DNA of 32,000 nt from contig OY759724.1 of the NCBI GenBank assembly GCA_963662715.1, forward strand, positions 2,400,001 to 2,432,000, given 5' to 3'. Every line of letters starts with the position of its first letter. Positions within the stretch are counted from its first letter, which is position 1. Made by a program: the position numbers and the translations under genes. The notes under the pieces were generated by a model. That model did not search any database and had not been told where the DNA came from. It saw only the letters and a list, made by a program, of their open reading frames with translations. Shown piece after piece: positions 6,088 to 29,151 of this stretch. This DNA comes from Candidatus Omnitrophota bacterium. GTDB lineage: Bacteria > Omnitrophota > Gorgyraeia > Zapsychrales > JANLHA01.

Positions 6088-9000
6088 ATGATTATAAAGT
6101 ATATCAAGAAAAGTCAGCCCCGGAGACGTTTTTATGCCCTTTTTGCCGTTGTTATGCTGGCGTGCCGTCTTTTTATCCCCGTAAACCTGAGCTATGCCCA
6201 AACAGTCTTAAGCCTGCCTGAACCCGGCTCAAGGGTTTCTCTGTCTTCGGAATATGTCCCGGTGCTTTTAAAAGGGTTGAAGCTTTATCCCAATCCTTTT
6301 CAATTTGATTTTATTATGGATACAGGGCATTCGGAATTGGAAGGGGCAGAGCTTCGTCAGGAATCAACGACGCTGATCAAATATTTCCTCGCGGCTTTAA
6401 CCATCCCGGAGAAAGAGCTCTGGGTGAACCTTTCTCCTTTTGAGAAGGAGCGGATCATCCCGGAATCTTTCGGGGCCACGGAAATGGGGCGGGATCTGCT
6501 GGCCCAGGACTATTTGTTAAAACAATTAACCGCTTCTTTGATGAATCCCGAAGAGGACCTTGGACAAAAGTTCTGGGACAGGATTTATCAGAAAGCCTTT
6601 GAGCTTTACGGCACAACAAGTATTCCGGTGAACACCTTCAATAAGATATGGATCATCCCGGAAGAGGCTTTGGTTTATTCTGAAAATGATGCTGTGTTTA
6701 TCATAAAAGGCCGTCTGAAAGTCCTGCTGGAACAGGATTATCTGGCTATGCAGGAGGTCGTCGACAGTTCTATCGGCATAGCTCTTAAGATTCAGAATAA
6801 ACAGGACCCTGTTACGAAAAAACTGCACGAGGATACGGTCGATATCGTGCGGGATTTAATTGTTCCCGAAATTGAAAAGGAAGTGAATGAGGGGAAAAAT
6901 TTCGCCAAGCTCAGGCAGATTTTTCACGCTGTCATTTTAGCCAAATGGTATAAGCAGAATTTGCAGGAGAATATTCTAAATAAGAAATATGCGGACCAGC
7001 GCAAGACAGACGGCGTCGAAGTCGATGATAAAGAGATCAAGGATAAGATTTATCAGCAGTATCTCGCGGCATTCCGGAAGGGGGTCTATAACCTCATTAA
7101 AGAGGACTACGACCCCAACGAGCGGAAAATGGTCCCCCGCAAGTATTTCCTCGGCGGGTCTTCGATGATCGTTACCCTTAAGGAGACAAAGAACAGCGCC
7201 TCCCTGCAGGAGGCGGAAAACATCCGTTTGATCAGGGTTTCAAGCGCCGTGGGGTTGCCGAACGGGATAGTGGCGGAAGCCGGAAGGTCTTTGGTGTCTT
7301 CTCCTGTGGACGGACCTCCGGCAGAACTTAGGCCGTTCGGGGATAAAGTGTCTGAGGAAGAATTGAAGCTGTCCGCTTTCCTGCGTGATATGTACGGTGT
7401 TTTATCCGGGATGGCGGCTCAGGTGGAAGAGTTTGTCTCGGTCACGCAAAAGGCGGAACTTCTTCCTAAAACATTTGAGGATTTTGATGCCCGGCTGTCT
7501 GATGCCTGGACAAAGATGATGACCCGGATTGGGCAGCTGTTGAATGATGACGGGATCAAATATGATATTTTCATCAAGAATGCCGTAACGCACAGATTTC
7601 AGTATTCCCGGCTTATGGAATCCCTGACCGGGTATAAGGGCCTGTATAAAGACGGAAAAATTTCCGGTGACCGCGCAGCTTTTATACAGGCTCTTGCGGA
7701 TGTTCAGGACACGCTGGCCCTTTTAAAAATACAGGTCCAGAACCTCGGGACGGAGTTGCACGAAGGCCGTTTCAGTAAAACCTCTGCAGGAAGAATTCAG
7801 CAGGTTCAGGTTGTTCTTGACGAACTGCAAAAGGGACAGGCTTATGTCGATGATGTGAAAGCCCTGCTGGCGGCCATGAATAAGAATCTCCGTCTGTTGG
7901 AGAATTTACTCAATCAGCAGACCCCGTTGTGGTCAAGTATCCAGAATCTGAAACAGCAGATTGAAACACAGCAGCATCAGCTGGTTGAGCTGGGGGAAAC
8001 CCTGGATGCTGCGGCGTTGTCGGAGGGCTTCTATATTTACCAGCCGGATGTGGATCTTGCCAGACGGTTTGACCTGCTGGACGGCGCGATGAGGAAACTT
8101 TCGGAAACTTTGGAAAAACGGGAGAGCTTTAACCCGATCTTTGCCAGATATTCTTTGCAGTCTATGCGGGGCACCCTGGTCATTTTAGCCGGGGATAATG
8201 CCGTTTTAGAGCAGAAGATTCAGTCCAGTATGGAATGGTTCCTGAAGAAAGGAGAGGGCTCACCGGTGTCCTCCCCTGTTCCCGAGGAGCCGCCGGCGGC
8301 GGACGCAGCCCGGATAACAGAAACACTGGTTACGTTCTTTATTTCAAAATCGCGGGGTTTTCTGGATATCCTCCGTTCCGAGACCGGCCGCCTCACGCAA
8401 TGGGGCGACACCCGTCCGTTCCCTAAGACCCTGCAGGAGATTTATCAGCGGATCGATATGTACTATGAAGAAATATTCTTGGCGGAAATCGAAATATTGA
8501 GAGATTCAACGGTCGGGGGAAACCGGAAGCTCGTTGACGGCATTAATGAGCTTGAACTGCTGATTTTTTCCGCAAGGGCGCAGCTTGATAAATGGAAAGA
8601 TGAGGCTGTATCTGTGAGAACGGTTGATGCCGGACTCCTGCAGGAACGCCGGACGATTCTTGAGAATGAGATCTCTGGGTTTGAAGAAGCGTTGAGCCAG
8701 TTTGAGGCGGATTTTAAACTGGGCGTTTATACCGCAGATGCCGAGAACCAGGAACGGCCCGCGGCATTGATGACCGGATTTTTGGAACAGGCCAAACAGA
8801 CATTAACGGAATTTGAAACAATTTTAACCCGTTTGCGCCGGGATGTTCAAGAGACCGTTATGCTGGAATCAGCCAAAGTGTCGGAATACCGCAGACTTCA
8901 GACGGCTTATAAGATGCTGGACCGGATGAAAGAAGAGCTCATTGCTCATGACGCGATGAAGTCTTTTGGCGAAGCCAGGGAATTGCTGGGCAGTATAAAT

Positions 9001-10730: not shown

Positions 10731-10759
10731 TTGACAAAAACAGGTTGAACAGGCATAAT
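10731..10759 (+). promoter_or_regulatory. Candidate sigma70-type promoter (TTGACA-N17-CATAAT) at the head of the glycan locus
   Basis: TTGACA at 10731-10736, a 17-nt spacer, then CATAAT at 10754-10759, in the 158-nt gap after the giant gene. Confidence 0.5.
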
Positions 10760-10787
10760 ATAACTTCCTTAAGTCTAAGGAAGTTAT
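10760..10787 (+). promoter_or_regulatory. Perfect 12-bp inverted repeat (operator or 5' mRNA stem-loop)
   Basis: ATAACTTCCTTA-AGTC-TAAGGAAGTTAT, starting immediately after the -10 hexamer and therefore spanning the predicted transcription start. Confidence 0.5.
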
Positions 10788-10877
10788 GTGGATACATGTT
10801 TTATGATCCGTCCGGTCTGCCGTCGGATTGGGAAGGTGTTTGTTCCCGGTCCGGTGCCTGTATGAGTGAATAAACTT

Positions 10878-12014
10878 ATGAATCATGGTAACGTAACGGT
10901 TATAAGTTCTTTGCCTCCGATTGTCGGATTAAGTCCGTATACAAAAGCATTCGTTACGGAGTTGTCGAAAAGAATTTCCGTAACTTTTTTGGGGTTTAAA
11001 CATATTTATCCGGCGTTCCTGTATCCCGGGAAAATATATGATGAAAGTGCGGAGATCTTGTCAGAACACCCGCATTTGAGAATCCGCAACGTCCTGAATT
11101 GGTACAATCCTTTCGGGTGGCTGGTTGAGGCTTTTCGGATCAAGACAGATATCATTCATGCCCAGTGGTGGAGCTTTCCTCTGGCTCCGGTTTATATCAC
11201 CATCCTGGGAATAAACAAATTGCGGGGTAAAAAGATTGTTTTGACCATTCACAATGTTCTGCCTCATGAAAAGAGTTTCTTAAAAATTTTTCTGAATAAG
11301 TCCGTCTATTTTTTAGGGGATGAATTTATTGTTCATACGAAGCAGAATAAAGAAGACCTGGCGAAAATCATTAAAACAAAAAAAATTCACGTTATCCCGC
11401 ATGGTTTAGTGCACACCCCGCTTAAAGGGATGAGCAAAGAGCAGGCCCGGGAAGGATTGAAAATCTGTGAAACGGATAAAGTTCTTCTGTGTTTTGGTCA
11501 TATCCGGGACTATAAGGGGCTTGACGTCGCTATAAGGGCGTTGTCTTTGATAAAAGATCCTTCGGTGAAATTGATCATTGCCGGCAGATGCTGGGAAGAC
11601 TGGTCAAAGTATGAACAATTAATAGAACAGCTTGATTTAAAAGAGAGGGTTATTCTTAAAGTCGGTTTTATCCCGACCGATCAGATTGAACCTGTTTTCA
11701 GGGCCTCTGACCTGGTTTTACTGCCTTATAAGCATTTTAATTCTCAAAGCGGGGTCGGGGCGCTGGTTTTGCCGTTTGAAATCCCTCTGATTGTCGCAAG
11801 AACAGGAGGGCTTCCTGAGTATGTCAAGCGTGAGGACTGCGTCATTGAACCCAATCATCACGAGGAGCTTGCCGCCAAGATTCAGAATATATTGTTGAAT
11901 AAAGAATTGTATGAACAGTTAAAAAAGGATATCCTGACGCAGAAAGCAGAATTGAGCTGGGAGGCGATTGCCGAAAAGACTGTTACCGTTTATGGTGAGG
12001 GGCGCCATTCATGA
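10878..12014 (+). CDS. Glycosyltransferase, GT4 family (Glycos_transf_1 type)
   Basis: GT-B features: the C-terminal half has LLCFGHIRDYKGLDVAIRAL, KLIIAGR and SQSGVGALVLPFEIPLIVARTGGLPEYV, an EX7E-like region. The start is ATG 10878 or GTG 10866. Confidence 0.9.
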   Translation: MNHGNVTVISSLPPIVGLSPYTKAFVTELSKRISVTFLGFKHIYPAFLYPGKIYDESAEILSEHPHLRIRNVLNWYNPFGWLVEAFRIKTDIIHAQWWSFPLAPVYITILGINKLRGKKIVLTIHNVLPHEKSFLKIFLNKSVYFLGDEFIVHTKQNKEDLAKIIKTKKIHVIPHGLVHTPLKGMSKEQAREGLKICETDKVLLCFGHIRDYKGLDVAIRALSLIKDPSVKLIIAGRCWEDWSKYEQLIEQLDLKERVILKVGFIPTDQIEPVFRASDLVLLPYKHFNSQSGVGALVLPFEIPLIVARTGGLPEYVKREDCVIEPNHHEELAAKIQNILLNKELYEQLKKDILTQKAELSWEAIAEKTVTVYGEGRHS

Positions 12015-13135
12015 AGTTTATAGATTTGCATAGACAATATAAGCAATATCAGCAGGAGATTGATGCTCAGATTTCGGACGTTATTGAGAATACGGCTTTC
12101 ATCATGGGGCCCAAAATAGCAGAGCTTGAAGAATTGCTTGCTCATAACGCGGGGGTCAAGTATGCCGTCGCGTGCTCTTCCGGAACAGATGCGTTGTTGC
12201 TGGCGTTAATGGCGTATGATATCCGCCCGGGGGATGAAATTATAACAACGACTTTTTCGTTTATAGCAACAGCGGAAGTGGTTGCGTTCTTAAAAGCCAC
12301 TCCGGTTTTTGTTGATGTTGACCCGGAGACTTATAATATTGATCCGGAAAGAATAAAAAATGCTGTGACGGAAAAAACCCGGGGCATTATTGCCGTTGAT
12401 ATCTTCGGGCAGTGTGCGGATTATGACGCCATTAATGCTGTCGCCAAAGAAAATAATTTGTTTGTTATTGAAGATGCTGCGCAGTCTTTCGGCGCAAGAT
12501 ATAAAGACCGGCCGGCCTGCTCCTTAAGCGGTATGGCCTGCACGTCGTTTTTTCCGGCCAAGCCTCTGGGCTGCTACGGAGACGGCGGAATGGTTTTTAC
12601 GGATGACGCAGAAAAGGCCGGCCTTATGAACTCATTCAGAGGGCATGGTCAAGGAACTCATAGATACGACCATGTAAGAATCGGCCTGAATGCCAGATTG
12701 GATGCTTTGCAGGCGGCTGTATTGCTTGCCAAATTTCCTCGTTTTTCTGCGGAAATCACCGCCAGAAACAGATTGGCAGACTATTACAATGAAAACCTGG
12801 ATAAGAAAATAAAAACCCCGGTTGTTTTGGATCATAACCTTTCTACCTATGCCCAGTATTCTATCCGGGTTGCCCTCCGCGATGAACTGCAGGTCTGGTT
12901 GAAAGACAAGGGGATCCCTTCCGCCATCCATTACCCGAAACCTCTTCATCTTCAGCCTGCATTCAGTTATTTGAATTATGCGGCAGGGGATTGTCCTGTT
13001 GCCGAGAATATCTGTGAGAATATTATTTCATTGCCCATGCACCCGTTTTTAACGGATGAAGAGATGGATCTGATTATTCATACCGTTAACGATTTTATTG
13101 AAAAACACCCGCTCTCTGATTCTGTCCCGTCTTGA
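12011..13135 (+). CDS. DegT/DnrJ/EryC1/StrS-family PLP-dependent sugar aminotransferase
   Basis: 374 aa with blocks GPKIAELEE, SGTDALLLAL, FSFIATAE, EDAAQSFGA and SFFPAKPLGCYGDGGMVFT (the PLP lysine). The start overlaps the GT4 stop by 4 nt. Confidence 0.92.
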   Translation: MKFIDLHRQYKQYQQEIDAQISDVIENTAFIMGPKIAELEELLAHNAGVKYAVACSSGTDALLLALMAYDIRPGDEIITTTFSFIATAEVVAFLKATPVFVDVDPETYNIDPERIKNAVTEKTRGIIAVDIFGQCADYDAINAVAKENNLFVIEDAAQSFGARYKDRPACSLSGMACTSFFPAKPLGCYGDGGMVFTDDAEKAGLMNSFRGHGQGTHRYDHVRIGLNARLDALQAAVLLAKFPRFSAEITARNRLADYYNENLDKKIKTPVVLDHNLSTYAQYSIRVALRDELQVWLKDKGIPSAIHYPKPLHLQPAFSYLNYAAGDCPVAENICENIISLPMHPFLTDEEMDLIIHTVNDFIEKHPLSDSVPS

Positions 13136-13160
13136 CAGGACGGGTTTTTACGGGCATAAT
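13126..13160 (+). promoter_or_regulatory. Hairpin with T-tract overlapping a TTGACA-N17-CATAAT promoter-like element
   Basis: CCCGTC (13126-13131) pairs with GACGGG (13139-13144), followed by TTTTT. TTGACA at 13132-13137 contains the aminotransferase stop codon; a 17-nt spacer leads to CATAAT at 13155-13160. Confidence 0.4.
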
Positions 13161-13254
13161 AGAAACTCTTTTAAATGGAAAGGGGATAGTCATCGGAGAT
13201 CCTTCGTCCGGAGAGTATGTCGCGGGGGTGAGGGGGTTCCGGGAGACAGCAGAA

Positions 13255-14244
13255 ATGAATATACTTGTTACCGGCGCGACCGGTTATGTCGGCCGCGCAC
13301 TGATTCCTCAATTATGTCAGGCAGGGCACAGCATCCGTATCCTGGCCCGGAAAACCAGTGATCTCAGCGCTTTTAAGGAATGCCGGAAGGCTCTGGAGGT
13401 CTTTTACGGTGATCTGCTTCAGGAAGAGACCCTCCGCGGCATAGGGGAGAATATCGACTATGTCTGTCATCTCGCAGGAGTGCTTCCCTATAGTCAAACA
13501 AAGGCCGAACATTATTATGACGTCAACAAGACAGGAAGCCTTAATTTGATAAAACAATTCGCCGGCAGCCGCGTAAAGAATTTCCTTTTCACGACCTCAA
13601 CCGCTTCTTTGGGAGCGATATCGAAAGATATCGTTACTGAGAATGATTTCAGTCCTCCGATCGCCGATTACGGGAAATCCAAGTATGCCGCGGAACTCGC
13701 CATAAGAGAATTTGCGGAAAAACAGGCCATCCCGTATACAATGGCCCGTTTAACGCATATTTACGGGCCCGGAGAAACCCGGGACCTTTACCGTATGGTC
13801 AAAATGATGAAAAAGGGCATTTTCCCGCAGATCGGGTTCAAACCGAATCTTTATCCGGCTGTTTATATCGACGATGCCGTTAACGGGATTATCAGGGTGT
13901 TGGAACGCGGCCGGCCAGGGGAAACCTATATTATTACGGATAAAGAGTCGCATGATACGCGTCTGATCCGGAAGTATGTCCTGCAATATCTGAGCCTCAA
14001 GAAATCCTTGTATCCTTTCTTGCCCAAATATTTATCCTTACTCATTTTTTCGATACTCGATATAATATCTGATATGAGCGGGGTCAAGTTTCCGGCCACC
14101 AGGAAAAACATCCAGTTCCTGAGTGCCGGCAGAAGGTTCAGCATTGAAAAGGCCCGGAAGGAACTGGGATATGTCCCGCAAGTCCCGTTAAAAGAAGGCT
14201 TGAGAAAAACCATAGAATATTATCTTCAGGAGGGATTAATATGA
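13255..14244 (+). CDS. NAD-dependent epimerase/dehydratase (extended SDR)
   Basis: The ATG at 13255 gives MNILVTGATGYVGRAL, placing the Rossmann GxxGxxG at the N-terminus. The catalytic YGKSK (YxxxK) motif is present. The track ORF starts at TTG 13132, but those 41 extra residues have no SDR counterpart. Confidence 0.85.
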   Translation: MNILVTGATGYVGRALIPQLCQAGHSIRILARKTSDLSAFKECRKALEVFYGDLLQEETLRGIGENIDYVCHLAGVLPYSQTKAEHYYDVNKTGSLNLIKQFAGSRVKNFLFTTSTASLGAISKDIVTENDFSPPIADYGKSKYAAELAIREFAEKQAIPYTMARLTHIYGPGETRDLYRMVKMMKKGIFPQIGFKPNLYPAVYIDDAVNGIIRVLERGRPGETYIITDKESHDTRLIRKYVLQYLSLKKSLYPFLPKYLSLLIFSILDIISDMSGVKFPATRKNIQFLSAGRRFSIEKARKELGYVPQVPLKEGLRKTIEYYLQEGLI

Positions 14245-15047
14245 GCGACCAGCCGGTAGAGCGTGATGTGGAAGTTGAAGGCTTTGGGGTTTCCTATGAT
14301 CGTCAGGTTGTTTTTTTTCATCAGCATATTTTGACCCGGGAGCTGAATCTGAAAACCATCCTCGAAATGCCTTCCAAGGGGGATAAGGCGGAATCTTCCA
14401 TTTATTCCATTGGCTTTGCCAAGGCGGGGTGCGACGTTACGGTTGCCAATTTTGAGGAAAGGACCAGGAAATACTGGCAGGAACTGGATATCGAGCAGCA
14501 TCTAAAAACCAGGGATGTGGCGGATTATGCGAAGACGGATTTCCCCGATAATGAATTTGATCTGACCTGGAACTACTGCACCTTTGCCGGCCTGCCGGAC
14601 AAAGACGCTTATATTCAAGAGATGATGCGTGTGAGTAAAAAGTATGTTTTGTTGCTCTGCGGCAACAATTTTCAGTTAGGTTATGTGATTCACAAGGCTG
14701 TTCATTTCCTTTACAAATTTCCTTGGACTCACGGAGACACTCATTACACGTTTCTGGGAAATGTCAGGGACCTGCTCACCCGCAACGGCCTTAAGATAAA
14801 AGAATGCGGGACCATTGATTCGCCGCCGTGGCCGTCGCCTGTCGGTTTCAGGGACGTCAGGCTTCATAAAAAAGGCATCAGCAAAACAAATTATCTTTGG
14901 GAGGTCCCGAGCATCCGGTACATGAAGAGCGGACAATTCCCTCTTTGGATGAACCTTATCCGGTTTTATGATATCCCCCTGCGGAAAGGGTACTGGAAAT
15001 TGCCTTTTTCACATATGTTTTATTTAATCGGGGAGAAGCAGGCATAG
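14241..15047 (+). CDS. Class-I methyltransferase-fold-like protein with degenerate SAM loop
   Basis: 268 aa. The order of elements resembles a Rossmann-type methyltransferase: ILEMPSKGD, CDVTVANFEE, FDLTWNYCTF, KYVLLLC. The GxGxG motif is absent. The start overlaps the SDR stop by 4 nt. Confidence 0.5.
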   Translation: MSDQPVERDVEVEGFGVSYDRQVVFFHQHILTRELNLKTILEMPSKGDKAESSIYSIGFAKAGCDVTVANFEERTRKYWQELDIEQHLKTRDVADYAKTDFPDNEFDLTWNYCTFAGLPDKDAYIQEMMRVSKKYVLLLCGNNFQLGYVIHKAVHFLYKFPWTHGDTHYTFLGNVRDLLTRNGLKIKECGTIDSPPWPSPVGFRDVRLHKKGISKTNYLWEVPSIRYMKSGQFPLWMNLIRFYDIPLRKGYWKLPFSHMFYLIGEKQA

Positions 15048-15053
15048 ATTAAA

Positions 15054-16199: not shown

Positions 16200-16284
16200 C
16201 CGACAGCCTGTTTTCGGTAGAAAATTGGCGGAAACGAAAAAAAATGAGCGCTCCTTTGTCATGATTGGGAATAAGGCAGCATGT

Positions 16285-16321
16285 AACCTCTTTTCATTTT
16301 TAGGTTTAAAGGGGTTTTTTT
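16285..16321 (+). terminator. Rho-independent terminator candidate
   Basis: AACCTCTTT (16285-16293) pairs with AAAGGGGTT (16308-16316), giving 9 bp including one G-U pair. The loop is 14 nt and a T-run follows to 16321. Lies 86 nt after the radical SAM stop. Confidence 0.45.
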
Positions 16322-16371
16322 GTCCGGCCGATAACCGGTTCTTTCTCTTCAGTATGTTGTAAATATATTTA

Positions 16372-16400
16372 TTGACAATGGTTTATGAATTTGCTACCAT
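16372..16400 (+). promoter_or_regulatory. Candidate promoter (TTGACA-N17-TACCAT)
   Basis: A consensus -35 at 16372-16377, a 17-nt spacer and a 4/6 match -10 at 16395-16400. It would give a leader of about 210 nt before the GT2 gene. Confidence 0.35.
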
Positions 16401-16613
16401 TATTATTTCGGCTTGTAGCCTGTCTTTAGGGCCATAGAAAGGGGCCAGGTAAGATCACGTGCCGGGAACAAGTCCCTGTATAAAGATTCGATGCCCCTGG
16501 CTTATAAGCATATTTCATGATATACACAATATTATATATAGCCGGCAGGTTGAGCGCGCGCAATGTCCAGGGGAGTCTATTTTTAACATAATCTACGATA
16601 AGGTTTTGGCCAA

Positions 16614-17597: not shown

Positions 17598-17679
17598 CGT
17601 TATTTGTTGTCAGTTGCTCGGGACGGGATGTCCTGGTCCGAACACCGGGAGCGGACAGGGGGAAGATACCTGGTCTTTA

Positions 17680-19146: not shown

Positions 19147-19148
19147 TC

Positions 19149-19898: not shown

Positions 19899-19973
19899 AA
19901 TAGCATGTGATATGTTGGGAGGGTGTTTTATTTTTTGTTTCTAAAATTATAAAGTTTTTAGAGGAGGATTGTC

Positions 19974-20822: not shown

Positions 20823-21633
20823 AATTAAAATCATCGCTGATCTCTCATCCAATCACATGGGAGACATTGACCTTGCCGAAAAAATGATAACGCGGGCAGC
20901 TGAAGCCGGGGTTGATTGCGTGAAACTCCAGTCCTGGCAAGCCGATCATCTCAGCAAAAATTTTAAGGGAGATTATGAGGCGACGTATCAGCGTCATAAA
21001 AAAACGGAGTTGTCCAACGACGACCATTATCGTTTGATGGAATTTTGCCGGCGTGCCGGAGTGGAGTTCCTGACGACGTGTTTCGACGTGGATAGAGTGG
21101 ACTTTCTCGCTTCCTTAGGGCTTAAGACCATTAAAGTCGCTTCCCCTGATTGCACGAGCAGGAGGCTTTTAAACAGACTGATGGAGAAATTCGAACAAAT
21201 CATTATTTCGACCGGAATGACGACAGATCAGGAGATAATCGAGACAGTCAAGTTCCTGGGAAATTATAATTATATCATGTTGCATTGCGTCTCCATTTAC
21301 CCGACCCCTCTGGGATCCTGCCACCTGAACCGGATCAATTGGCTCAAATCGCACGGCGCGGCCAGAGTCGGATTCAGTGATCATTCCGTCGGTGTCGAAG
21401 CCAGCATGGCGGCTATGACGATGGGTGTTGAAATTGTTGAGAAACATTTGACTTTGGACAAGTCTCTGCCAGGAAAAGACCAGGCCATGTCAACGACCCC
21501 GGAAGAGTTCCGCGAGATCTGCCGCTGGCGGGACCTCGCGGAGAAAATGCTGGGGGAGGAGAACCCGCCACTTTCTGAGGATGAAAAGGCGCTGAGGGAG
21601 ATATATATCGGGAAATGGGGGGATAATAAATGA
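20812..21633 (+). CDS. neuB: NeuB/LegI/PseI-family nonulosonic acid synthase, TIM-barrel only with no SAF domain
   Basis: IIADLSSNHMGDIDLAEKMITRAAEAGVDCVKLQSW, IKVASPD, LHCVSIYPTP, GFSDHSVG and VEKHLTLDK. At 273 aa it ends where the SAF/AFP-like domain of canonical NeuB would begin. Confidence 0.88.
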   Translation: MNRKIKIIADLSSNHMGDIDLAEKMITRAAEAGVDCVKLQSWQADHLSKNFKGDYEATYQRHKKTELSNDDHYRLMEFCRRAGVEFLTTCFDVDRVDFLASLGLKTIKVASPDCTSRRLLNRLMEKFEQIIISTGMTTDQEIIETVKFLGNYNYIMLHCVSIYPTPLGSCHLNRINWLKSHGAARVGFSDHSVGVEASMAAMTMGVEIVEKHLTLDKSLPGKDQAMSTTPEEFREICRWRDLAEKMLGEENPPLSEDEKALREIYIGKWGDNK

Positions 21634-22784
21634 CAAACATGCGAAAAATTTGTGTTGTGATTACCAGCCGGGCCAGTTACGCAAGAGTCAAATACTTGCT
21701 GAAAGCGATCCAGGCCCACCCGGAACTGGAACTGCAGCTCATCGTCGGAGCCTCAATCATGCTTTTCCGTTTTGGCAAAGCCATCGATATCATTCGTGAG
21801 GATGGGTTCGAGCCCGTTCGTACGATTTATTCTATTGTGGAAGGGGAAAGCCTGAACACCCAGGCCAAGTCAACCGGATTGGGTATCATTGAACTGGCCA
21901 CGGCCTTTGAACATCTCCGGCCCGATGTGGTTGTGACTGTGGCGGACAGATTTGAAACGATGTCAACAGCGCTGACGGCCAGTTATATGAACATCCCCTT
22001 GGCCCATGTCCAGGGGGGAGAGGTGAGCGGAAATATTGATGACTCTGTCCGGCACGCCATCACAAAGCTCGCGCATATTCATTTCCCTTCTACTCAAAAA
22101 AGCGCGGAAAGGGTGCTGCGGATGGGAGAGGAACCCTGGCGTGTGCATATGACGGGTTGCCCCAGCATTGATATCTTGAAACATGAAGATCTGACGGATT
22201 ACGCTTCTGTGTTGCAGAAATATGGCGGGGTTGGCCAATCCCTTGATTTGGGCCAGCCGTACATCCTGATGCTACAGCACCCCGTAACGACATCTTTTGG
22301 CCAGGGCTTTGGACAGATCAACAGCACTTTGGAGGCTTTGAAAAAACGTCCTGAGCAAAAGATTGTTTTATGGCCCAATATTGATGCGGGCAGCGATGAT
22401 GTGGCAAAAGGGATTAGATCATTCCGAGAAAGAAACAGGGACCTTAATTTTCATTACTACCGCAATTTTTCACCCGAAGATTATGCCCGTATCCTGAAAA
22501 ACGCCGTCTGCGCCGTTGGCAACAGCAGCTCCTTTATCCGTGAGGGGGCAGCTTTGGGGACGCCGGTGGTGATCGTCGGAGACCGCCAGGAAGGGCGGGA
22601 GCACGGCCAAAATGTTGTTTATTCGGGATATGATTGTGATGAAATTTTTGCCAAAATCGGGCAACAGGTGTCCCACGGTTCCTATGAGCCTGATTTGATT
22701 TTCGGGGACGGGAAGGCCGGGCAACGCATGGCGGACCTCCTGGCAAGAGTTGAACTGAAAATAAGGAAGTATATCACATTTTAA
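21630..22784 (+). CDS. neuC: UDP-N-acetylglucosamine 2-epimerase, hydrolysing type (NeuC/LegG family)
   Basis: KICVVITSRASYARVKYLL, VVTVADRFETMSTALTASYMNIPLAHVQGGEVSGNIDDSVRHAITKLAHIHF and GNSSSFIREGAALGTPVV. ATGA overlap with the preceding gene. Confidence 0.9.
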   Translation: MTNMRKICVVITSRASYARVKYLLKAIQAHPELELQLIVGASIMLFRFGKAIDIIREDGFEPVRTIYSIVEGESLNTQAKSTGLGIIELATAFEHLRPDVVVTVADRFETMSTALTASYMNIPLAHVQGGEVSGNIDDSVRHAITKLAHIHFPSTQKSAERVLRMGEEPWRVHMTGCPSIDILKHEDLTDYASVLQKYGGVGQSLDLGQPYILMLQHPVTTSFGQGFGQINSTLEALKKRPEQKIVLWPNIDAGSDDVAKGIRSFRERNRDLNFHYYRNFSPEDYARILKNAVCAVGNSSSFIREGAALGTPVVIVGDRQEGREHGQNVVYSGYDCDEIFAKIGQQVSHGSYEPDLIFGDGKAGQRMADLLARVELKIRKYITF

Positions 22785-22817
22785 CTTCGATTTAATTTTA
22801 ACCCGGGAGAATTTTTT

Positions 22818-23621
22818 GTGAAAGGACCAATATTTATCGGGGGATTGATGAAGTCAGGAACGTCTCTTTTAAGAGTGCTCCTGGCCAAACATCCCAATAT
22901 TTTCGGCGGATTGGAAACCCACTGGTTTTCTGATGACATTATCGTGGACTGGAAGGACTCGTCTTCTAAGAGACAACGATATCTCAGGGAATTTTTTGAT
23001 GTCAATGATTCCGAATTCGAAAAGATCAAATCCGAGGCATCCGATGGCGTGGATTTCTTTGACAGGTTTATGTTGTTTTGTGCCCGGCGTGATTCTAAGA
23101 ACCGCTGGGTTGAGAAAACACCGGACAATATTCTGCATATTTCGTCCATCAGGAAAAACTGGCCTGACGCGAAATTTATTCATGTCATGAGAGATCTCCG
23201 CGACATATACGCCAGCTGGAAGTCAAAAAAGAATATGGATATTGAGGCATTTCTTGCCAAAGCCCATGAGGTCTATGCCGGGCTTGAAGGAGTTGTCGGC
23301 AGGCCCGATGATTTTTACTTGGAAATCAACTATAATGACCTTGTTCTTGATACGAGGCGGACCATTGAGCGCGTTTTAAATCACATTGATGAGCCCTGGG
23401 TCGATGGGCTGGATTCAACCAGCGGGGATTCCGGCGAGTTTGAAAAGGTCTTGAAGATTACGGGGAAGGAAAGCGCAACTTTGAGTGCGTTGAAGCAGCC
23501 CATATTCTCCAGTTCTATTGGACAATGGGAAGATATCCTGAGTCAGGAAGAGTCTGATAGGATTGAGCGGGAGCTGGCCCCTTTTTGGGCGGCTGTATGG
23601 CAGTCCCGTATGGCCCATTGA
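22818..23621 (+). CDS. Sulfotransferase-family protein (PAPS-dependent)
   Basis: GTG start with a GGGAGA SD at 22804-22809. GGLMKSGTSLL matches the 5'-phosphosulfate-binding loop, and EKTPDNILH with HVMRDLRDIYASW matches the 3'-phosphate-binding region. Confidence 0.8.
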   Translation: MKGPIFIGGLMKSGTSLLRVLLAKHPNIFGGLETHWFSDDIIVDWKDSSSKRQRYLREFFDVNDSEFEKIKSEASDGVDFFDRFMLFCARRDSKNRWVEKTPDNILHISSIRKNWPDAKFIHVMRDLRDIYASWKSKKNMDIEAFLAKAHEVYAGLEGVVGRPDDFYLEINYNDLVLDTRRTIERVLNHIDEPWVDGLDSTSGDSGEFEKVLKITGKESATLSALKQPIFSSSIGQWEDILSQEESDRIERELAPFWAAVWQSRMAH

Positions 23622-23685
23622 TACTTAGCTGTTCCGGTGATGTTCCGAAATATTAAATCAAAAATCTACTGGCAATTTACTGTAT

Positions 23686-24624
23686 ATGTCTTTTTCCTCT
23701 GAAAGCCCCAAGCTAACCGTTGTCATGTTCCATTATATACGGGATTACAGCCGGACTCCGTTTCCCCGTATTAAGGGTATGGCTATCGAAGATTTCACGC
23801 TTCTGCTTAGAAAACTGAAGGATATTTATGAGATGGCCTCGCTCGAAGCTGCCTTGTCTTTTATCTCCGGAGACTATTCGCCCTCCCGGGATCTCTGTCT
23901 CCTGACTTTTGACGACGGGCTTAAAGACCACTATCACATAACCCCTTTACTCGCTGAAAATAAAGTGGCAGGTCTTTTTTTTGTCACAACGAAATGCATT
24001 GAACAGGGGCATGTTGCCAGTGTTCATAAAAATCATTTCCTGATGGCGAAATTGGATTTCCCTGATTATAAGAAATCCTTTATTGATCGTTTGATGTCTC
24101 TGAACCGGGAACTTGATATGACCGTCAGCAGCGAGGAGGCCCGGAAAACCTACCGGTGGGACTCGCCGGAAGTCGCGGAATTCAAGTATTTTCTAAACTT
24201 CCGCGTTCCGTCCGATTTGTGCCGTCGGGTTATTGATGAGCTTTTTGAGGCTGTCTTCGGCCCGGAAGAAGATTTTGCGAGAGATTTGTATCTCTCGTGG
24301 GACGAGGTCCGCGCCATGCAGGAAGAGGGGATGGTGATCGGGGGACATACGCATAATCATCTGGCCTTGTCTTCTCTGGATTATGCTGTCCAGGAAAAAG
24401 ACCTGCGGACCTGTCACGACCTGTTAAAAAGCCGTTTAAGCCCTCAGGCGTTGTGGCCCTTTTCCTATGCGTACGGCAAAAGAAATTCATTTAATTCTGA
24501 CAGTGTCCGAATACTCAAGGACATCGGCTTCTGCTGTTCTTTTGCAACGGAGGTCGGAATAAATTCCGTAAATACGGACCGGTTCTGTATCGGAAGGATT
24601 GATCCCAAGGATGTAGACTTATGA
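23686..24624 (+). CDS. Polysaccharide deacetylase (CE4 / NodB-homology) family protein
   Basis: LTFDDGLKDHY (CE4 motif 1, with the Asp-Asp pair) and GGHTHNH (the His motif). 312 aa. Confidence 0.8.
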   Translation: MSFSSESPKLTVVMFHYIRDYSRTPFPRIKGMAIEDFTLLLRKLKDIYEMASLEAALSFISGDYSPSRDLCLLTFDDGLKDHYHITPLLAENKVAGLFFVTTKCIEQGHVASVHKNHFLMAKLDFPDYKKSFIDRLMSLNRELDMTVSSEEARKTYRWDSPEVAEFKYFLNFRVPSDLCRRVIDELFEAVFGPEEDFARDLYLSWDEVRAMQEEGMVIGGHTHNHLALSSLDYAVQEKDLRTCHDLLKSRLSPQALWPFSYAYGKRNSFNSDSVRILKDIGFCCSFATEVGINSVNTDRFCIGRIDPKDVDL

Positions 24625-25331
24625 TAAGAGAATGCCTTGCCATTATTCCTGCTCGTGGGGGGTCTAAAGGGATCCCGAAAAAAAATTTAAGAGAATTATG
24701 CGGGAAACCCTTAATCCAATTCACTTTTGATGCCGCTAAGAAAAGCCGTCTTTTGACCCGTATCCTCTTGTCGACGGATTCCGAAGAGATTGCCGGTTTT
24801 GGCCGTTCGGAAGGGATTGACGTCCCGTTTCTTCGCCCGGCAGAGCTGGCGCGGGATGAGACGCCGACTCTGCCGGTTATTCAGCATGCCTTGTCGTATC
24901 TTAAGGATTCGGAAGACTACTCACCCCAAATTGTCGTTATGTTGCAGCCGACGGCCCCTTTGCGAAGTTCACAGAACATCGATGAGGCGGTAGAGCTCCT
25001 GATTTCCTCCCAGGCAGACTCTGTCGTGAGTGTTTGCGAGGTCCCCGGCCACTATAATCCTCATTGGCAGTTTGTTATAGAAGATAATAAGCTGAAAATT
25101 TTTACGGGGGAATCTTTCCCGGAGCTTATCAGCCGCAGGCAAATTCTCCCCAAAACGTTCACCAGAAACGGTGCGATATATGCGTATCACGCAGATAATT
25201 TGAATAAATATGCATCGATTTATGGATGGCATTGTGTGCCTTACATTATGTCCGGCGAACAATCTGTCAATATTGACAGCTGGGAAGACTGGTTGCTGGC
25301 CGAACTGCGATTGAAAGAATCGGACGGTTAA
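24621..25331 (+). CDS. neuA: Acylneuraminate cytidylyltransferase (CMP-nonulosonic acid synthetase, NeuA/LegF family)
   Basis: AIIPARGGSKGIPKKNLRELCGKPLIQ, LQPTAPLR and RRQILPKTFTRNGAIY. ATGA overlap with the CE4 gene. Confidence 0.9.
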   Translation: MIRECLAIIPARGGSKGIPKKNLRELCGKPLIQFTFDAAKKSRLLTRILLSTDSEEIAGFGRSEGIDVPFLRPAELARDETPTLPVIQHALSYLKDSEDYSPQIVVMLQPTAPLRSSQNIDEAVELLISSQADSVVSVCEVPGHYNPHWQFVIEDNKLKIFTGESFPELISRRQILPKTFTRNGAIYAYHADNLNKYASIYGWHCVPYIMSGEQSVNIDSWEDWLLAELRLKESDG

Positions 25332-25339
25332 ATCTGCTT

Positions 25340-26662
25340 ATGAAATCTGTTGACCTTTTGATTTTTATTGAACATATTGCCCGGGAACTGGATGTCGCCT
25401 GTGCTATCAAGTGTTTAATGGAAAAGAATCATCATGTTTCCGTGGAAATCGCGTCGATAGTCTATGACTTGAAATCTACCCTTAAGAAATTCCGTCCGAA
25501 GGTCGTGGTTGTCCCTTTTTGCTATTCGGCCTTTGATTGGGGATTGATTGATGTTATTTCTGCGTGGCGTGATGCGGTTTATGTCAATTTCTGTTACGAG
25601 CAGGTTTATCGAAAAATATACAAGAAGATCAAGGCCCCCAAGGATGATTTTGCCAAACAACACGCTGTTCATCTTGTCTGGACTCAGGCTTTTGCGGATT
25701 ATTTGAAAGAAAACGGCGTGCATGAAAAGAATGTGTTTTGTAACGGGAACCTGAATTTTTCTTTTTATGGTCAGCCTTACTCCGTGGCCTATGTTTCCCG
25801 GGAAGACCTTGCCGCCCGGTATGCCCTTGATCCGGCAAAACGTTGGGTGTTTATCCCGGAGAATTACCGCGCAGCCTTTTATAAAAACAGCGATATCAAA
25901 AAGCTGGCCAAGCGTGGTTTTGGAACGGATCGTGCGCAAATGTATTATGAACTTATGGTCGATTCTTTTCAGGAGGTCGTGCGTTGGTGGTATCAAGCGG
26001 CTGAATCAAAGGACGTGGAACTCATTATTAGGCCGCGGCCGACCAATCCCCGGTCTATATTCCTGAAATCGTTGGTCAAGATCGCCGGGGAAAAACCAGA
26101 ACACCTCCACATCATTAAAGACGGGACTGTTAAGGAATGGATTATGGCCAGTGATGTTGTGATGTCTTCATACAGTACGGTATTGATGGAAGCTGCTTTG
26201 GCAGAAAAACCGGTCTACATCATGCTGCCTTTTCCTTGTCCTGAGTTTTTGTCATCCGATTGGTATGATTTGGTGCCCAAAGTTACGGACTTCGGAGGTT
26301 TCCAGGCTGCCGTTAGCCGTCCTGCTTCAGAGTCTGGCTGGGAACCCCTGCATGCTTATGTTAAAGAGAATATGATGGGGCAGGGTGATCCGATAGCTTT
26401 TGCCGCAAACCTGTTGAATGATGTTGTAGGAAAAAAAAGCGGGATGAGATTGTTGCCTCCCGGGGAGGTCATCGGCCGACAGATCTCGAGCTTTTCCTTA
26501 TGGCAAACTAAGGCTGAATATGCCTGGAGCCGCTTCAAACGGACCCCCCAGGTGAGTGCGCTAAGAGCGCGTCTGGGGAGGATTAACCTGTGGGAAAAAG
26601 ACAGGTTGTCCGGGGACGCGCTTGATCAGCGGCTTCTCCTGTGGAGAAGGATTTTGAAATAA
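25340..26662 (+). CDS. Uncharacterised GT-B-like surface-carbohydrate biosynthesis protein (candidate nonulosonate transferase)
   Basis: A 440-aa ORF starting 8 nt after neuA. It has an N-terminal IFIEHIARELD block and a C-terminal half with WVFIPEN, LIIRPRP and SSYSTVLMEAALAEKPVYIM, resembling the GT-B nucleotide-sugar-binding half. The functional assignment is tentative. Confidence 0.45.
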   Translation: MKSVDLLIFIEHIARELDVACAIKCLMEKNHHVSVEIASIVYDLKSTLKKFRPKVVVVPFCYSAFDWGLIDVISAWRDAVYVNFCYEQVYRKIYKKIKAPKDDFAKQHAVHLVWTQAFADYLKENGVHEKNVFCNGNLNFSFYGQPYSVAYVSREDLAARYALDPAKRWVFIPENYRAAFYKNSDIKKLAKRGFGTDRAQMYYELMVDSFQEVVRWWYQAAESKDVELIIRPRPTNPRSIFLKSLVKIAGEKPEHLHIIKDGTVKEWIMASDVVMSSYSTVLMEAALAEKPVYIMLPFPCPEFLSSDWYDLVPKVTDFGGFQAAVSRPASESGWEPLHAYVKENMMGQGDPIAFAANLLNDVVGKKSGMRLLPPGEVIGRQISSFSLWQTKAEYAWSRFKRTPQVSALRARLGRINLWEKDRLSGDALDQRLLLWRRILK

Positions 26663-26700: not shown

Positions 26701-29151
26701 TTAGATGCCTTCGAGATGTTCTTCTTTAATAACCCCGCAGATTAAATAGCTAATAATTATAAGCCAAACCACGGCCATTGTTCCCCAAAAGTTATACAGA
26801 AAGGTTACTTCGGGGGAATGAAACGAAAACAGTATTTTATTGGCTCCGGGTTTTAGCGGGATGGCTTTATAGGCCAAATTGGCTTTATAGACCGGAGCCG
26901 GCTTGCCGTTAACTTCTGCCTTCCAGACGGGGTGCCAGACATCACTATATAATAACCAGCCGGACCGGCTTTTATTCCCAAGAATAGAAATTTCTAAATG
27001 ATTGGAAGCGTATCTGTCGACATGATATTTAAGCTCGTCCCGCTGATCCGCCGATAAATCATTGCTATCCGTCCATGGCTGTGCATGAGAGGGGGTGTCC
27101 TTTTGGGGAGCCAAGAAAAGCACATCTCCTTTGTATCGGGGATCGGTCATGAGGGAGGCCATTTCTTTTTCAGAGCCGACAGTGTAGGCATTGCTGAAAA
27201 ATTGAATTTTGTCTTCGGTGAGGCCGGCTATCTTCCCGGATGCCGGATGGGTCAGCGGGAAAATCAGGCGGTTAAAGGGGATAAGCCCTTTGGGTGTTGC
27301 TGAACTGTCGTTGACAGGTTGTCCCCAATAAGCCCGCATATATCGGTCAAGCGGTTTAAGGCAATGGTCCGTGCGGCCCAGATGGCCGATTTCATCCCGG
27401 AACAGAAAAATATACGTTGACCAGTAAGTCGGGTCATAGGTAAGACTATAGAAGATTTTATCCCGAGGCCTGTCCAGGGAAAAGGCCCGGTCTCTTCTTT
27501 TTATGTAGGGCATTTTTTGAAATCTTGTTGTGGAGTAACTATCCGTGTTAAGAGGGACGGTCTTGCGGTTTATTTCGAATATTTTATATCCGTACAGGTT
27601 GACGGCATGTAAGAAAAGTATCAAATAAATAAGAAGACGGCGATATGGCCGGTCCTTGATATTTATGAACAACGTGAGTAGGATGGAAGTCAGGAAGGAG
27701 AAGACGGCGGAGTTTTTCATGCGGGCTGTAATAAGATTTTTATCGATAATATGAGGCAGTCCCAGTTGAAATCGGGGGGTGTCGGCGTTGACATCTTTTT
27801 GAATCGTTGTGGCTTGCACGATGGTTTTGTATATGTTTTCTGCCAAGTCAGCATCACGGGCGATGGTCCATTGCAGAAGGGCAGCGCCGAAAAGCAGCAG
27901 CGAACACACGGTTAAAATATTTTTAAAATGAGATTCTTTAACGTGTCCGGGAGCAGGATTGAGCAGGACGTCGAGGCCAAAGCCGGACAAAAAACAAATA
28001 AATATCTTTATCAAAGGAGAGATCAACGATAAGTGCCGGTAGTATTTCATCATTGGCCAGATAAAGTAAAAAAGAGCGGCCACGGCGGTTCCTGCACTTG
28101 TGAGAAACAGGACGGCAATGACGGCGAGAAAGTGGCGGTTGCCGCGCCGGGTATTGAATAAAAGGCCGATCAGGATAAGGGGGAGCGGCAAAAGCCCGAT
28201 AAATAAATTTTGATCAAGAAAAGGGGAATAGCCGAAGACAAGCTCCGCCCATTTGGCAGGGCTGAGGTTTTTGCCGTAACTCAAGAATCCTGCTAATGAA
28301 TTTTGCGAGCTGGCCTCCCGGCCGTAATTATACTTGGCTATCTGGTCCGTATGTATGGAAACAGATTGATACGCAAGATAGAATATGAGTATGAGGAGGG
28401 TTAAGGCGCAAAGCATTTGTCCGTTTATCCGGACGTCCGAGAAACGTCTGCGTATGTCATGAAAATTAAACAAAAAGTAGAAGGCAAAGTATAAGAAGAC
28501 TGTTAAGGAAAGGACCGCCAGCAGGTACGGCGCGTTGCCGAAAATCTGGAAGGCAAGCAGATTTCCCGACAAGAACAAATAACGCCATTTCCCTGTATCC
28601 AGAAATTTGTGGCCGAAATGCAAGATCAACGGCAGGGTATAATACAGGTGAAAGTTAAACCAGGGCTGGAGCATCCATATGCAGGAGCCGATGACTGTCA
28701 GTGTCACGAAAAAAACGGTCAGCGGTGATTTGAAAAAACGTTTGGCTAACAGCCAGGAACCCGAAAGCAGGATGAGTTCATCAATGAATATTCCGATATT
28801 AAAAATAATTGCGAAATTAGTGCTTTTCAGCAAAGGCGAGATGAAACCGCTGATTTGTAAAAGAACGTTCTGGAAAATTCCGGCTTGGTGAACATACCAC
28901 CAGGTGGCGACTGTTCCGTGGGTCATATATTGCATCCATTGCGGTGTTTCTCCGGAGAAAATTTTATCGTTCAGAAAATAGTACTGAATAATGAAGTATT
29001 GAAAGCCGTCTAAGCCCCCGGGGATACGGTGTTGTACGATTAGATATAATAAACAGCAGAATTCCAGCAGCAGAAGGGATATGAAAAGCAAATTTATTTT
29101 TTGGTTAGATTTAACTAATGTGTTTTGAATGATTTTTGATTTGCTGAACAT
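26701..29151 (-). CDS. YfhO-like GT-C-fold polytopic membrane protein
   Basis: 816 aa with more than 12 N-terminal TM spans, a large soluble domain and a final C-terminal TM. The tail YSDVWHPVWKAEVNGKPAPVYKANLAYKAIPLKPGANKILFSFHSP matches the YfhO-family C-terminal pattern as I remember it. Confidence 0.65.
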   Translation of the reverse strand: MFSKSKIIQNTLVKSNQKINLLFISLLLLEFCCLLYLIVQHRIPGGLDGFQYFIIQYYFLNDKIFSGETPQWMQYMTHGTVATWWYVHQAGIFQNVLLQISGFISPLLKSTNFAIIFNIGIFIDELILLSGSWLLAKRFFKSPLTVFFVTLTVIGSCIWMLQPWFNFHLYYTLPLILHFGHKFLDTGKWRYLFLSGNLLAFQIFGNAPYLLAVLSLTVFLYFAFYFLFNFHDIRRRFSDVRINGQMLCALTLLILIFYLAYQSVSIHTDQIAKYNYGREASSQNSLAGFLSYGKNLSPAKWAELVFGYSPFLDQNLFIGLLPLPLILIGLLFNTRRGNRHFLAVIAVLFLTSAGTAVAALFYFIWPMMKYYRHLSLISPLIKIFICFLSGFGLDVLLNPAPGHVKESHFKNILTVCSLLLFGAALLQWTIARDADLAENIYKTIVQATTIQKDVNADTPRFQLGLPHIIDKNLITARMKNSAVFSFLTSILLTLFINIKDRPYRRLLIYLILFLHAVNLYGYKIFEINRKTVPLNTDSYSTTRFQKMPYIKRRDRAFSLDRPRDKIFYSLTYDPTYWSTYIFLFRDEIGHLGRTDHCLKPLDRYMRAYWGQPVNDSSATPKGLIPFNRLIFPLTHPASGKIAGLTEDKIQFFSNAYTVGSEKEMASLMTDPRYKGDVLFLAPQKDTPSHAQPWTDSNDLSADQRDELKYHVDRYASNHLEISILGNKSRSGWLLYSDVWHPVWKAEVNGKPAPVYKANLAYKAIPLKPGANKILFSFHSPEVTFLYNFWGTMAVVWLIIISYLICGVIKEEHLEGI

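Follow-up and report, generated by a model that had tools for sequence, protein, structure and literature searches.

A nonulosonate surface-glycan island, a giant secreted protein, and a YfhO-like GT-C protein at one Omnitrophota locus: probably three independently inherited pieces

Organization of the locus

The Omnitrophota are an uncultured phylum whose cell surface is, to our knowledge, essentially undescribed. Here we provide a first dissection of a surface-glycan island from this phylum, based on a 32-kb stretch of a Candidatus Omnitrophota genome (positions 2,400,001 to 2,432,000 of contig OY759724.1), referred to below as the window, in which all features are numbered from the first position of the whole stretch. 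The window contains a gene for a giant secreted protein, a block of 15 co-directional glycan genes (10866-26662, + strand), and a gene for a YfhO-like GT-C membrane glycosyltransferase (GT) that converges on the block from the opposite strand, with a gap of 38 nt (Table 1). A first-pass annotation made from the sequence had proposed these elements as a possible single, self-contained surface-glycoprotein system. Our analysis makes it reasonably probable that the region instead comprises three independently inherited pieces, i.e., a Wzx-dependent nonulosonate island, a giant protein that belongs to a serS-linked block of genes, and a YfhO-like GT-C protein. The 15 glycan genes would thus constitute a strain-variable surface-glycan island, the product of which is exported via Wzx and capped with a decorated sialic-acid-like sugar.

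Table 1. Coordinates of the genes and sites discussed in the text (window numbering)
Feature	Position	Strand	Evidence or remark
Small membrane protein, 194 aa, ~3 hydrophobic segments	5414-5998	+	No Pfam/NCBIfam match; directly upstream of giant gene
Secreted multi-domain (giant) protein, 1552 aa	6049-10707	+	TTG start at 6049; ATG at 6088
Promoter-like site, TTGACA-17-CATAAT	10731-10759	+	Consensus match only; 5' of first sub-operon
Perfect 12-bp inverted repeat, ATAACTTCCTTA / TAAGGAAGTTAT	10760-10787		4-nt spacer; starts straight after -10 hexamer, upstream of GT4
GT4 (GT-B) glycosyltransferase	10866-12014	+	PF00534, 84 bits
DegT/PseC/LegC-type pyridoxal-phosphate sugar aminotransferase	12011-13135	+	PF01041, 368 bits
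Extended short-chain dehydrogenase/reductase (SDR; nucleotide-sugar oxidoreductase/epimerase/dehydratase)	13132-14244	+	PF01370, 120 bits; best matches generic
Weak class-I S-adenosylmethionine (SAM) methyltransferase-like protein	14241-15047	+	PF08241, 29.7 bits
Radical SAM/SPASM (twitch-like) enzyme	15054-16199	+	PF04055 and PF13186
Promoter-like site	16372-16400	+	Sigma-70-like consensus match inside 414-nt gap; 5' of second sub-operon
GT2 chain-extending glycosyltransferase	16614-17597	+	PF00535, 132 bits
Wzx-type flippase, ~10 transmembrane segments	17572-19146	+	PF01943, 76.9 bits; transmembrane scan
CmoA, carboxy-SAM synthase	19149-19898	+	TIGR00740, 249 bits (equivalog cut-off, 193.3)
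Class-I methyltransferase, 282 aa	19974-20822	+	PF08241, 56.7 bits; 11-nt overlap with neuB
Short (SAF-less) NeuB-family nonulosonate synthase, 273 aa	20812-21633	+	PF03102, 227 bits
NeuC-type hydrolysing UDP-GlcNAc 2-epimerase	21630-22784	+	TIGR03568, 367.8 bits (cut-off, 235.9)
Sulfotransferase (Sulfotransfer_3)	22818-23621	+	PF13469, 104 bits
CE4 polysaccharide/sugar de-N-acetylase	23686-24624	+	PF01522, 62 bits
CMP-nonulosonate synthetase (NeuA/PseF-like)	24621-25331	+	PF02348, 86.5 bits; PseF, 168 bits (under 205.7 cut-off)
Candidate nonulosonate transferase, 440 aa	25340-26662	+	Relative of BFO_1060/TIGR04396 family
YfhO-like GT-C membrane glycosyltransferase, 816 aa	26701-29151	-	Convergent on block
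tRNA-Ser(UGA)	29505-29593	+	Beyond 5' end of YfhO-like gene; SerRS gene (4121-5395) 24 kb away

The open reading frame (ORF) map and the junction sequences reproduce the tight packing of the block that had been described earlier, with overlaps of 4 nt at 12011, 14241, 21630, and 24621, an overlap of 11 nt at 20812-20822, and gaps as short as 6 nt (15047/15054), 2 nt (Wzx stop at 19146, CmoA ATG at 19149), and 8 nt (25331/25340). Wider gaps occur before the GT4 gene (158 nt) and between the radical-SAM and GT2 genes (414 nt); since each of these carries a promoter-like site, the block is probably organized as two operons with putative promoters. No RNA family was detected by Rfam in either gap, and the inverted repeat upstream of GT4 may represent an operator or else a 5' hairpin. 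The variable segment of the chromosome may extend from the giant gene to tRNA-Ser(UGA), with the tRNA as its right-hand landmark.

Searches of Pfam and NCBIfam bore out the identities proposed at first pass for all 15 glycan genes. They also agreed with it, within the window, on the lack of an initiating transferase, a Wzy polymerase, a chain-length regulator, and an N-acetyltransferase, as no phosphoglycosyltransferase, Wzy, Wzz, WaaL/PglL (Wzy_C), STT3/PglB, or N-acetyltransferase domain was found among the window proteins. A hydrophobicity scan of the 32 kb picked out just two polytopic membrane proteins, Wzx and the 816-aa GT-C protein.

A widespread nonulosonate cassette

The designation of the block as a modified-nonulosonate locus with Wzx is supported by its neuB, neuC, and neuA genes and by the candidate transferase gene behind them. 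The NeuC match spans the full TIGR03568 model (positions 1-365 of 365). NeuB is shorter than the canonical model, scoring 222 bits against TIGR03569 (equivalog cut-off, 399.65) over positions 3-275 of 329, with no SAF (antifreeze-like) domain; its TIM-barrel motifs SNH, KFQ, SDH, and EKH are invariant across 36 homologues. More than 1000 homologues of this short form are spread over many phyla, with lengths of ~245-295 aa among the matches listed. Of note, the SAF-less family reaches many bacterial and archaeal phyla, including lineages of the candidate phyla radiation (CPR) and DPANN, and its members display a conserved C-terminal YVGKWGDN motif at the place where the antifreeze-like domain would be.

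The gene for the 440-aa protein begins 8 nt past neuA. Judged by sequence score and NCBI criteria, the protein is related to the BFO_1060/TIGR04396 family without belonging to it, reaching 89 bits against NF046086 (cut-off, 200; E 3e-25) and 78 bits against TIGR04396 (cut-off, 125; E 7e-22); a PDB sequence search gave no usable match. In Tannerella forsythia, the BFO_1060 family is needed for the addition of pseudaminic (Pse) or legionaminic (Leg) acid, and the genes directly follow those for the CMP-sugar (PMC5420450).

The closest long contigs carry NeuB-NeuC-NeuA, with NeuB identities to the window protein of 71% (L006), 68% (L007), and 54% (L008, in Omnitrophota) and NeuC identities of 58-69%. 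In both L006 and L007, the position after neuA is occupied by a homologous transferase gene (410-435 aa, 36-39% identity), and neither a DegT nor a dehydratase gene adjoins the cassette; L007 also encodes a CE4 protein, a formyltransferase, and a Wzm/Wzt ABC exporter. Because the cassette recurs without an aminotransferase/dehydratase pair, and because the window SDR is not PseB/LegB-like, a Neu5Ac-type route is favored, and the predicted nonulosonate would be a Neu5Ac-type sugar, not Leg or Pse. For the same two reasons, we consider a Leg/Pse route, in which DegT and the SDR would feed NeuC/NeuB, to be less likely; the DegT protein itself scores 230 bits against PseC and 183 bits against LegC, both under the equivalog cut-offs.

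A single-sequence NeuB query had matched nothing in GTDB genomes, and a scan via a NeuB alignment returned 80 loci, each taken with 10 kb on either side. NeuC was encoded in 50 of these and NeuA in 50, followed by DegT (16), SDR (14), and CE4 (3); CmoA and a weakly matching sulfotransferase were each found once, and neither a YfhO-like gene nor a giant-protein N-domain was found in any. On this comparative sequence evidence, the NeuB-NeuC-NeuA(-CE4)-transferase cassette is a widespread module that recurs in unrelated lineages. The combination of SAF-less NeuB with a BFO_1060-like transferase, as a portable module, will aid in the annotation of many metagenomic loci.

Tailoring genes and a second CmoA-nonulosonate association

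The CmoA protein matches solved CmoA/YecO structures over its full length (1im8, E 1.9e-50; 4gek, E 2.3e-48), and from these sequence comparisons it is a bona fide carboxy-SAM synthase. Its neighbor, the 282-aa methyltransferase, is a candidate user of carboxy-SAM or SAM, with neither this protein nor any other in the window matching the CmoB or CmoM models of Pfam and NCBIfam. The arrangement resembles the CmoA/CmoB system for tRNA cmo5U and the CmoA/CmoX system for phage DNA carboxymethylation (PMC12783734) in that CmoA stands beside a class-I methyltransferase-fold enzyme; it differs in that the neighbor is not CmoB, CmoM, or CmoX, that the pair sits between wzx and neuB, and that the implied substrate would be a sugar. 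Carboxy-SAM is already known to act beyond tRNA, in phage DNA modification (PMC12783734), and ordinary methyltransferases can be engineered to use it (PMC7496830). Literature searches uncovered neither a report of carboxy-SAM acting on sugars nor a bacterial locus described for a sulfated or carboxymethylated nonulosonate.

CmoA and nonulosonate genes occur together a second time, independently, in an unrelated alphaproteobacterial (Rhodospirillaceae) locus, where a CmoA-like gene follows neuA (TIGR00740, 161 bits, full length). This locus (L031 8538-20663, from a metagenome-assembled genome) encodes a methyltransferase, a short NeuB, NeuC, a 2-hydroxyacid dehydrogenase, an oxidoreductase, a second NeuB-like protein (513 aa), a HAD enzyme, NeuA, the CmoA-like protein, and a 461-aa GT-B-like protein. 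Since the island is replaceable (see below), a housekeeping tRNA-modification gene would be an unlikely passenger in it. The claim of a sugar-directed CmoA is limited by its methyltransferase partner not being conserved elsewhere: a metagenome-contig scan with the 282-aa protein returned a single relative, of 27% identity and in an unrelated context, and the CmoA-methyltransferase pair was not seen to be conserved. We thus regard a role for CmoA directed at the sugar as about evenly balanced. The lead remains that carboxy-SAM, documented so far in the modification of tRNA and phage DNA, could also serve to decorate a sugar.

Genes for CE4 enzymes lie within NeuBCA cassettes elsewhere, beside the formyltransferase gene in L007 and beside a methyltransferase gene in L014. 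In the window, the CE4 and sulfotransferase genes are adjacent, which by analogy to the de-N-acetylase and sulfotransferase activities of heparan sulfate NDST suggests deacetylation followed by sulfation; unlike in NDST, the presumed substrate is a nonulosonate, and the folds and families are unrelated. PDB sequence searches with the SDR, radical SAM, methyltransferase, and sulfotransferase proteins yielded generic relatives only, with the radical SAM/SPASM protein being distantly related to SkfB and MoaA. The earlier statement that the tailoring set as a whole (CE4, sulfotransferase, CmoA with its methyltransferase, and radical SAM) fits no named pathway still stands.

The giant secreted protein and the serS block

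Homology searches with the giant protein returned >3600 homologues, essentially all from Omnitrophota; in nearly all of the matches listed, the best local alignment covers the N-terminal ~350 aa only. At least three family members are encoded on the same 3.36-Mb contig, i.e., at least two besides that of the window. The family begins with a signal peptide ending approximately at AYA, before Q-x-L-N-L-P-x-P-G, followed by a conserved N-domain of ~350 aa, and closes with a conserved domain of ~70 aa (GGIDLN…GLxPVIINITPxxNLPLLLG) that resembles a sorting signal. The intervening parts vary, containing HEAT repeats, receiver, HATPase, methyltransferase, phosphoglucomutase, or DnaJ domains; an export signal framing domains that are usual in cytoplasmic proteins is an odd combination. 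The N-domain matches nothing in Pfam, NCBIfam, or the folds of the PDB, the latter judged from a mediocre structure model (pLDDT 61) that gave no meaningful fold match. This family of >3600 members, in which signal peptide, N-domain, and C-terminal domain are constant, may be of greater interest to specialists than the claim of a glycoprotein system.

The giant protein does contain the Ser-Ser-Pro (SSP) linkers attributed to it at first pass. Four copies of SSP[VI] are present, at residues 417, 741, 1053, and 1474; for SSP[VILM], the four observed compare with 0.07 expected, and none of 2000 shuffles reached four. Across the family, SSP is 5-fold enriched (156 observed vs 31 expected), whatever the neighboring genes, and in 31 of 104 members a copy lies within 40 aa ahead of the C-terminal domain.

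One syntenic relative of the giant gene was found (P0002 on contig L009), the product of which is 69%, 38%, and 41% identical to the window protein over three segments. Upstream, L009 retains six genes in order, encoding a response regulator, an HTH-cupin protein, an LTD protein, a second response regulator, SerRS (85% identity), and the 194-aa membrane protein (59%). Downstream (L009 18048-27770) follow genes for a radical SAM protein, a GT2, a MetW-like methyltransferase, an amine oxidase, a B12 radical SAM protein, a methyltransferase, a radical SAM/SPASM protein, and a 723-aa protein of unknown function; apart from one weak methyltransferase match, none of these matches any of the 15 window glycan genes. 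The 723-aa protein was considered as a hidden YfhO-like relative, and no relation was found. From this conserved upstream order and exchanged downstream cluster, we infer that the giant protein goes with the serS block and that the glycan genes form an island that can be replaced. The giant protein may have the 194-aa protein as a partner; the latter is not part of the glycan locus.

The YfhO-like GT-C protein and its own neighborhood

Against the YfhO model PF09586, the 816-aa protein scores 22.0 bits (gathering cut-off, 28.5) and aligns in its C-terminal stretch only; some of its homologues have a precomputed PF09586 match. While a PDB sequence search gave no usable relative, ~60 full-length homologues (28-48% identity) were retrieved, and an AlphaFold model built from 43 of them is confident (pLDDT 88.8, pTM 0.91). 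The top 16 Foldseek matches of this model in the PDB are all GT-C proteins (EmbA/B/C, ArnT, STT3, AftA/D), at modest TM-scores of 0.07-0.46. Residue D48, directly after the first transmembrane segment in the first outside loop, is invariant in the 43 homologues, in a GHD context rather than a strict DXD. We thus accept the 816-aa protein as a YfhO-like GT-C at the level of its modeled fold, and to this extent the convergent GT-C gene announced earlier is upheld.

Six genomic contexts of YfhO-like homologues were inspected, and neither NeuBCA nor Wzx is encoded in any of them. In GCA_011052855.1 (Omnitrophica), the YfhO-like gene overlaps by 4 nt with that for a 232-aa GT2, followed by a split transketolase-like pair, an SDR, and a further GT2; L001 has the same elements and a second YfhO-like paralogue. 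Tandem paralogues accompany a 241-aa GT2, a CE4 protein, and many B12 radical-SAM genes in L002 and L004, three paralogues are present without the 241-aa GT2 in L003, and two lie between citrate synthase and two giant-family genes in L005. A small GT2 stands beside YfhO-like homologues in L001, in L002/L004, and in L091/L092. Common to the arrays (L001 1443-12430; L002 5087-18070; L091 6846-13630; L092 10001-16785) is a conserved module in which a small GT2 (232-241 aa) is joined by a split transketolase/E1-like pair, an SDR, and several B12-binding radical-SAM proteins, and which looks like an uncharacterized periplasmic glycosylation system for a modified, possibly branched or alkylated, sugar.

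The window protein shares with the YfhO/CsbB/GtcA systems (PgtC2/GtrB, PgfM1/PgfS) the GT-C fold, a periplasmic domain at the C-terminus, and an acidic residue that is invariant in the first outside loop, and its homologues elsewhere are likewise paired with a small GT2. It is set apart by its sub-threshold YfhO score (22 vs 28.5) and by a window with no GT2 or small flippase partner; moreover, those systems are Gram-positive, whereas the host here is a diderm candidate phylum, in which the homologue contexts add transketolase-like and B12 radical-SAM genes. No GtrB/CsbB/PgfS-type GT2 that could partner the GT-C protein was found in the window. The window GT2 was considered for such a role and rejected, its best relatives being chain-extending GT2s (closest in the PDB, K4CP, GalT1, and PglI; DPMS a distant match only).

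Do the three elements form one system?

In its strongest form, the earlier model holds that a Wzx-flipped oligosaccharide is moved en bloc by the YfhO-like GT-C onto the SSP linkers of the giant protein, with all parts encoded side by side. The adjacency of the three elements, the absence of Wzy/Wzz from the window, the confirmed GT-C fold, the strong over-representation of SSP, and the two YfhO-like genes beside two giant-family genes in L005 are all compatible with it. Nor is the SSP acceptor idea absurd, given that streptococcal YfhO-family enzymes O-glycosylate Ser/Thr-rich disordered regions (PMC12041528), though it is unsupported here. It had been set out beforehand that two findings would count against a dedicated system, i.e., a giant family unlinked from the glycan locus and a YfhO-like gene with a conserved neighborhood of another kind; both were found. 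The giant ortholog of L009 keeps its upstream block and precedes a different cluster, and the YfhO-like family has its own neighborhood, mostly with a small GT2 in place of NeuBCA and Wzx. Furthermore, no YfhO-like or giant-family gene occurs within 10 kb in any of the 80 NeuB-relative loci (0/80), nor in L006-L008. Giant-family genes are also frequent, in that the 32-kb window and L009 contain one each and the 22-kb L005 two; since they are this common, the giant gene is likely to be adjacent by chance.

En-bloc transfer of flipped lipid-linked oligosaccharides is the task of PglB (an STT3-type GT-C, N-linked) or of PglL/PilO (Wzy_C, O-linked). Flipping by Wzx followed by transfer via a YfhO-type GT-C would therefore merge two routes, as the known YfhO-type enzymes, e.g., those for teichoic-acid glycosylation in B. 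subtilis and Listeria and the streptococcal PgtC2 and PgfM1, do not take Wzx-flipped oligosaccharides; they use single sugars from undecaprenyl-monophosphate, the donors being made by GtrB/CsbB/PgfS-type GT2s (PMC5836110, PMC8035078, PMC12041528). Taken together, a dedicated glycoprotein system of a new kind is not supported, and we hold the self-contained model to be very unlikely.

In the reading that we favor, of three independently inherited pieces, the YfhO-like protein would most likely transfer one sugar residue from a polyprenyl-monophosphate donor onto an acceptor in the periplasm. The GT2 with which such proteins are usually paired is not encoded next to it, and the YfhO-like protein is probably not dedicated to the glycan locus. 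A link to the island is nonetheless conceivable, with the GT-C acting as a periplasmic decorator (GtrC/YfhO-like) that adds one extra sugar from a donor made by a GT2 encoded elsewhere. Decoration is what YfhO-type enzymes have been characterized to do (PMC5836110, PMC8035078), a small GT2 accompanies the homologues, and the gene is convergent with and adjacent to the block, within the stretch that the giant gene and tRNA-Ser delimit. Against this, the partner GT2 is not in the window, the GT2 that is there is of the chain-extending kind, and no other locus combines the YfhO-like family with NeuBCA or Wzx; we consider such a link to be quite unlikely.

A model for the island and its acceptor

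If the glycan genes are an island of their own, a pathway can be proposed for them. By family membership, NeuC converts UDP-GlcNAc to ManNAc, the SAF-less NeuB condenses ManNAc with phosphoenolpyruvate into a sialic-acid-type nonulosonate, and the NeuA/PseF-like enzyme yields the CMP-sugar. From position and family, the CE4 enzyme would take off the N-acetyl group, and the freed amine or hydroxyls would be re-decorated by the sulfotransferase and the CmoA-adjacent methyltransferase, possibly with a carboxymethyl group from carboxy-SAM. DegT, the SDR, the methyltransferase-like protein, and the radical SAM enzyme may produce a second, amino-type sugar, such that the first operon would supply and add that sugar. 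After priming by an initiating transferase encoded elsewhere, the GT4, the GT2, and the BFO_1060-like transferase would build a short nonulosonate-capped oligosaccharide on undecaprenyl-diphosphate at the cytoplasmic face, with the 440-aa protein moving the CMP-sugar onto the lipid-linked glycan in the manner of the BFO_1060-family enzymes of T. forsythia (PMC5420450), and Wzx would flip the product. Genes outside the window would determine the final acceptor, which could be the lipopolysaccharide core (through a ligase), a polymer (through Wzy), or proteins (through an oligosaccharyltransferase); most likely it is a lipid or a polysaccharide.

The same genes can be compared with Wzx/Wzy O-antigen and capsule clusters that contain neuBCA. 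Common to both are co-directional nucleotide-sugar genes, GT2 and GT4 enzymes, Wzx, a neuB-neuC-neuA set, and replaceability at a fixed position. The window block differs in having no Wzy, Wzz, or initiating transferase, in the lack of a SAF domain in NeuB, and in the addition of CE4, sulfotransferase, CmoA, and radical-SAM genes. The island belongs to the familiar Wzx-dependent loci for nonulosonate-capped glycans, in which the CmoA association is the newest element.

An acceptor of another kind is envisaged if the island serves general protein O-glycosylation as in Bacteroidota, in which case an unlinked, unrecognized oligosaccharyltransferase would modify many exported targets, possibly the whole SSP-bearing giant family. 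Wzx is present and Wzy/Wzz are absent at the locus; SSP is enriched throughout the family and often precedes its C-terminal domain; and the outer glycan is variable at a chromosomal site that stays the same, as is seen for LFG loci (PMC12871550). The closest parallel is the O-glycosylation locus of T. forsythia (Tanf_01245/TFUB4_00887), where CMP-nonulosonate genes are likewise followed directly by a gene for a ~440-aa GT-B/TagB-like transferase of a related family (PMC5420450), with a methyltransferase in the cassette, flipping by Wzx, and a strain-variable terminal sugar. Unlike that locus, the window encodes a transferase below the BFO_1060/TIGR04396 cut-offs, a NeuC/NeuB rather than a Pse/Leg route, no Bacteroidota-type acceptor motif, and tailoring by CE4, sulfotransferase, and CmoA. 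Further, no oligosaccharyltransferase (Wzy_C/PglL or STT3/PglB) is encoded in the window, and the short-NeuB cassette of L007 adjoins a Wzm/Wzt ABC transporter, typical of polysaccharide export. General O-glycosylation of this kind is accordingly regarded as unlikely. A bolder combination, which we consider highly improbable, would have YfhO-like GT-Cs carry out general O-glycosylation across Omnitrophota on the SSP linkers before the C-terminal domain, with glycans drawn from variable islands, here one with a sialic-acid cap that is de-N-acetylated, sulfated, and carboxymethylated via carboxy-SAM.

Several points weigh against the interpretation of three independent pieces and the pathway proposed with it. 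The evidence comes from a 32-kb window, with the initiating transferase, the polymerase or ligase, and any CmoB outside this view, making the final acceptor a guess. Located between the giant gene and tRNA-Ser, the YfhO-like gene could have been co-acquired with the island. CmoA could be a housekeeping tRNA-modification gene, and the synteny argument draws on one relative only. Finally, other than for NeuC, NeuB, NeuA, CmoA, and Wzx, functions were placed by position: the substrates of the CE4, sulfotransferase, methyltransferase, radical SAM, DegT, and SDR proteins are assigned by family and position only.

Other genes of the window

The remaining genes of the window encode response regulators, an HTH-cupin protein, an LTD protein, SerRS, a GAF-HD protein, and small proteins of unknown function. 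Among the small ORFs, those at 1588-1977 (129 aa) and 2137-2550 (137 aa), upstream of the gene for the LTD-domain protein (2815-3501), each encode an N-terminal hydrophobic segment and the common motif …DEAIIIAQH…, and they appear to be paralogous.

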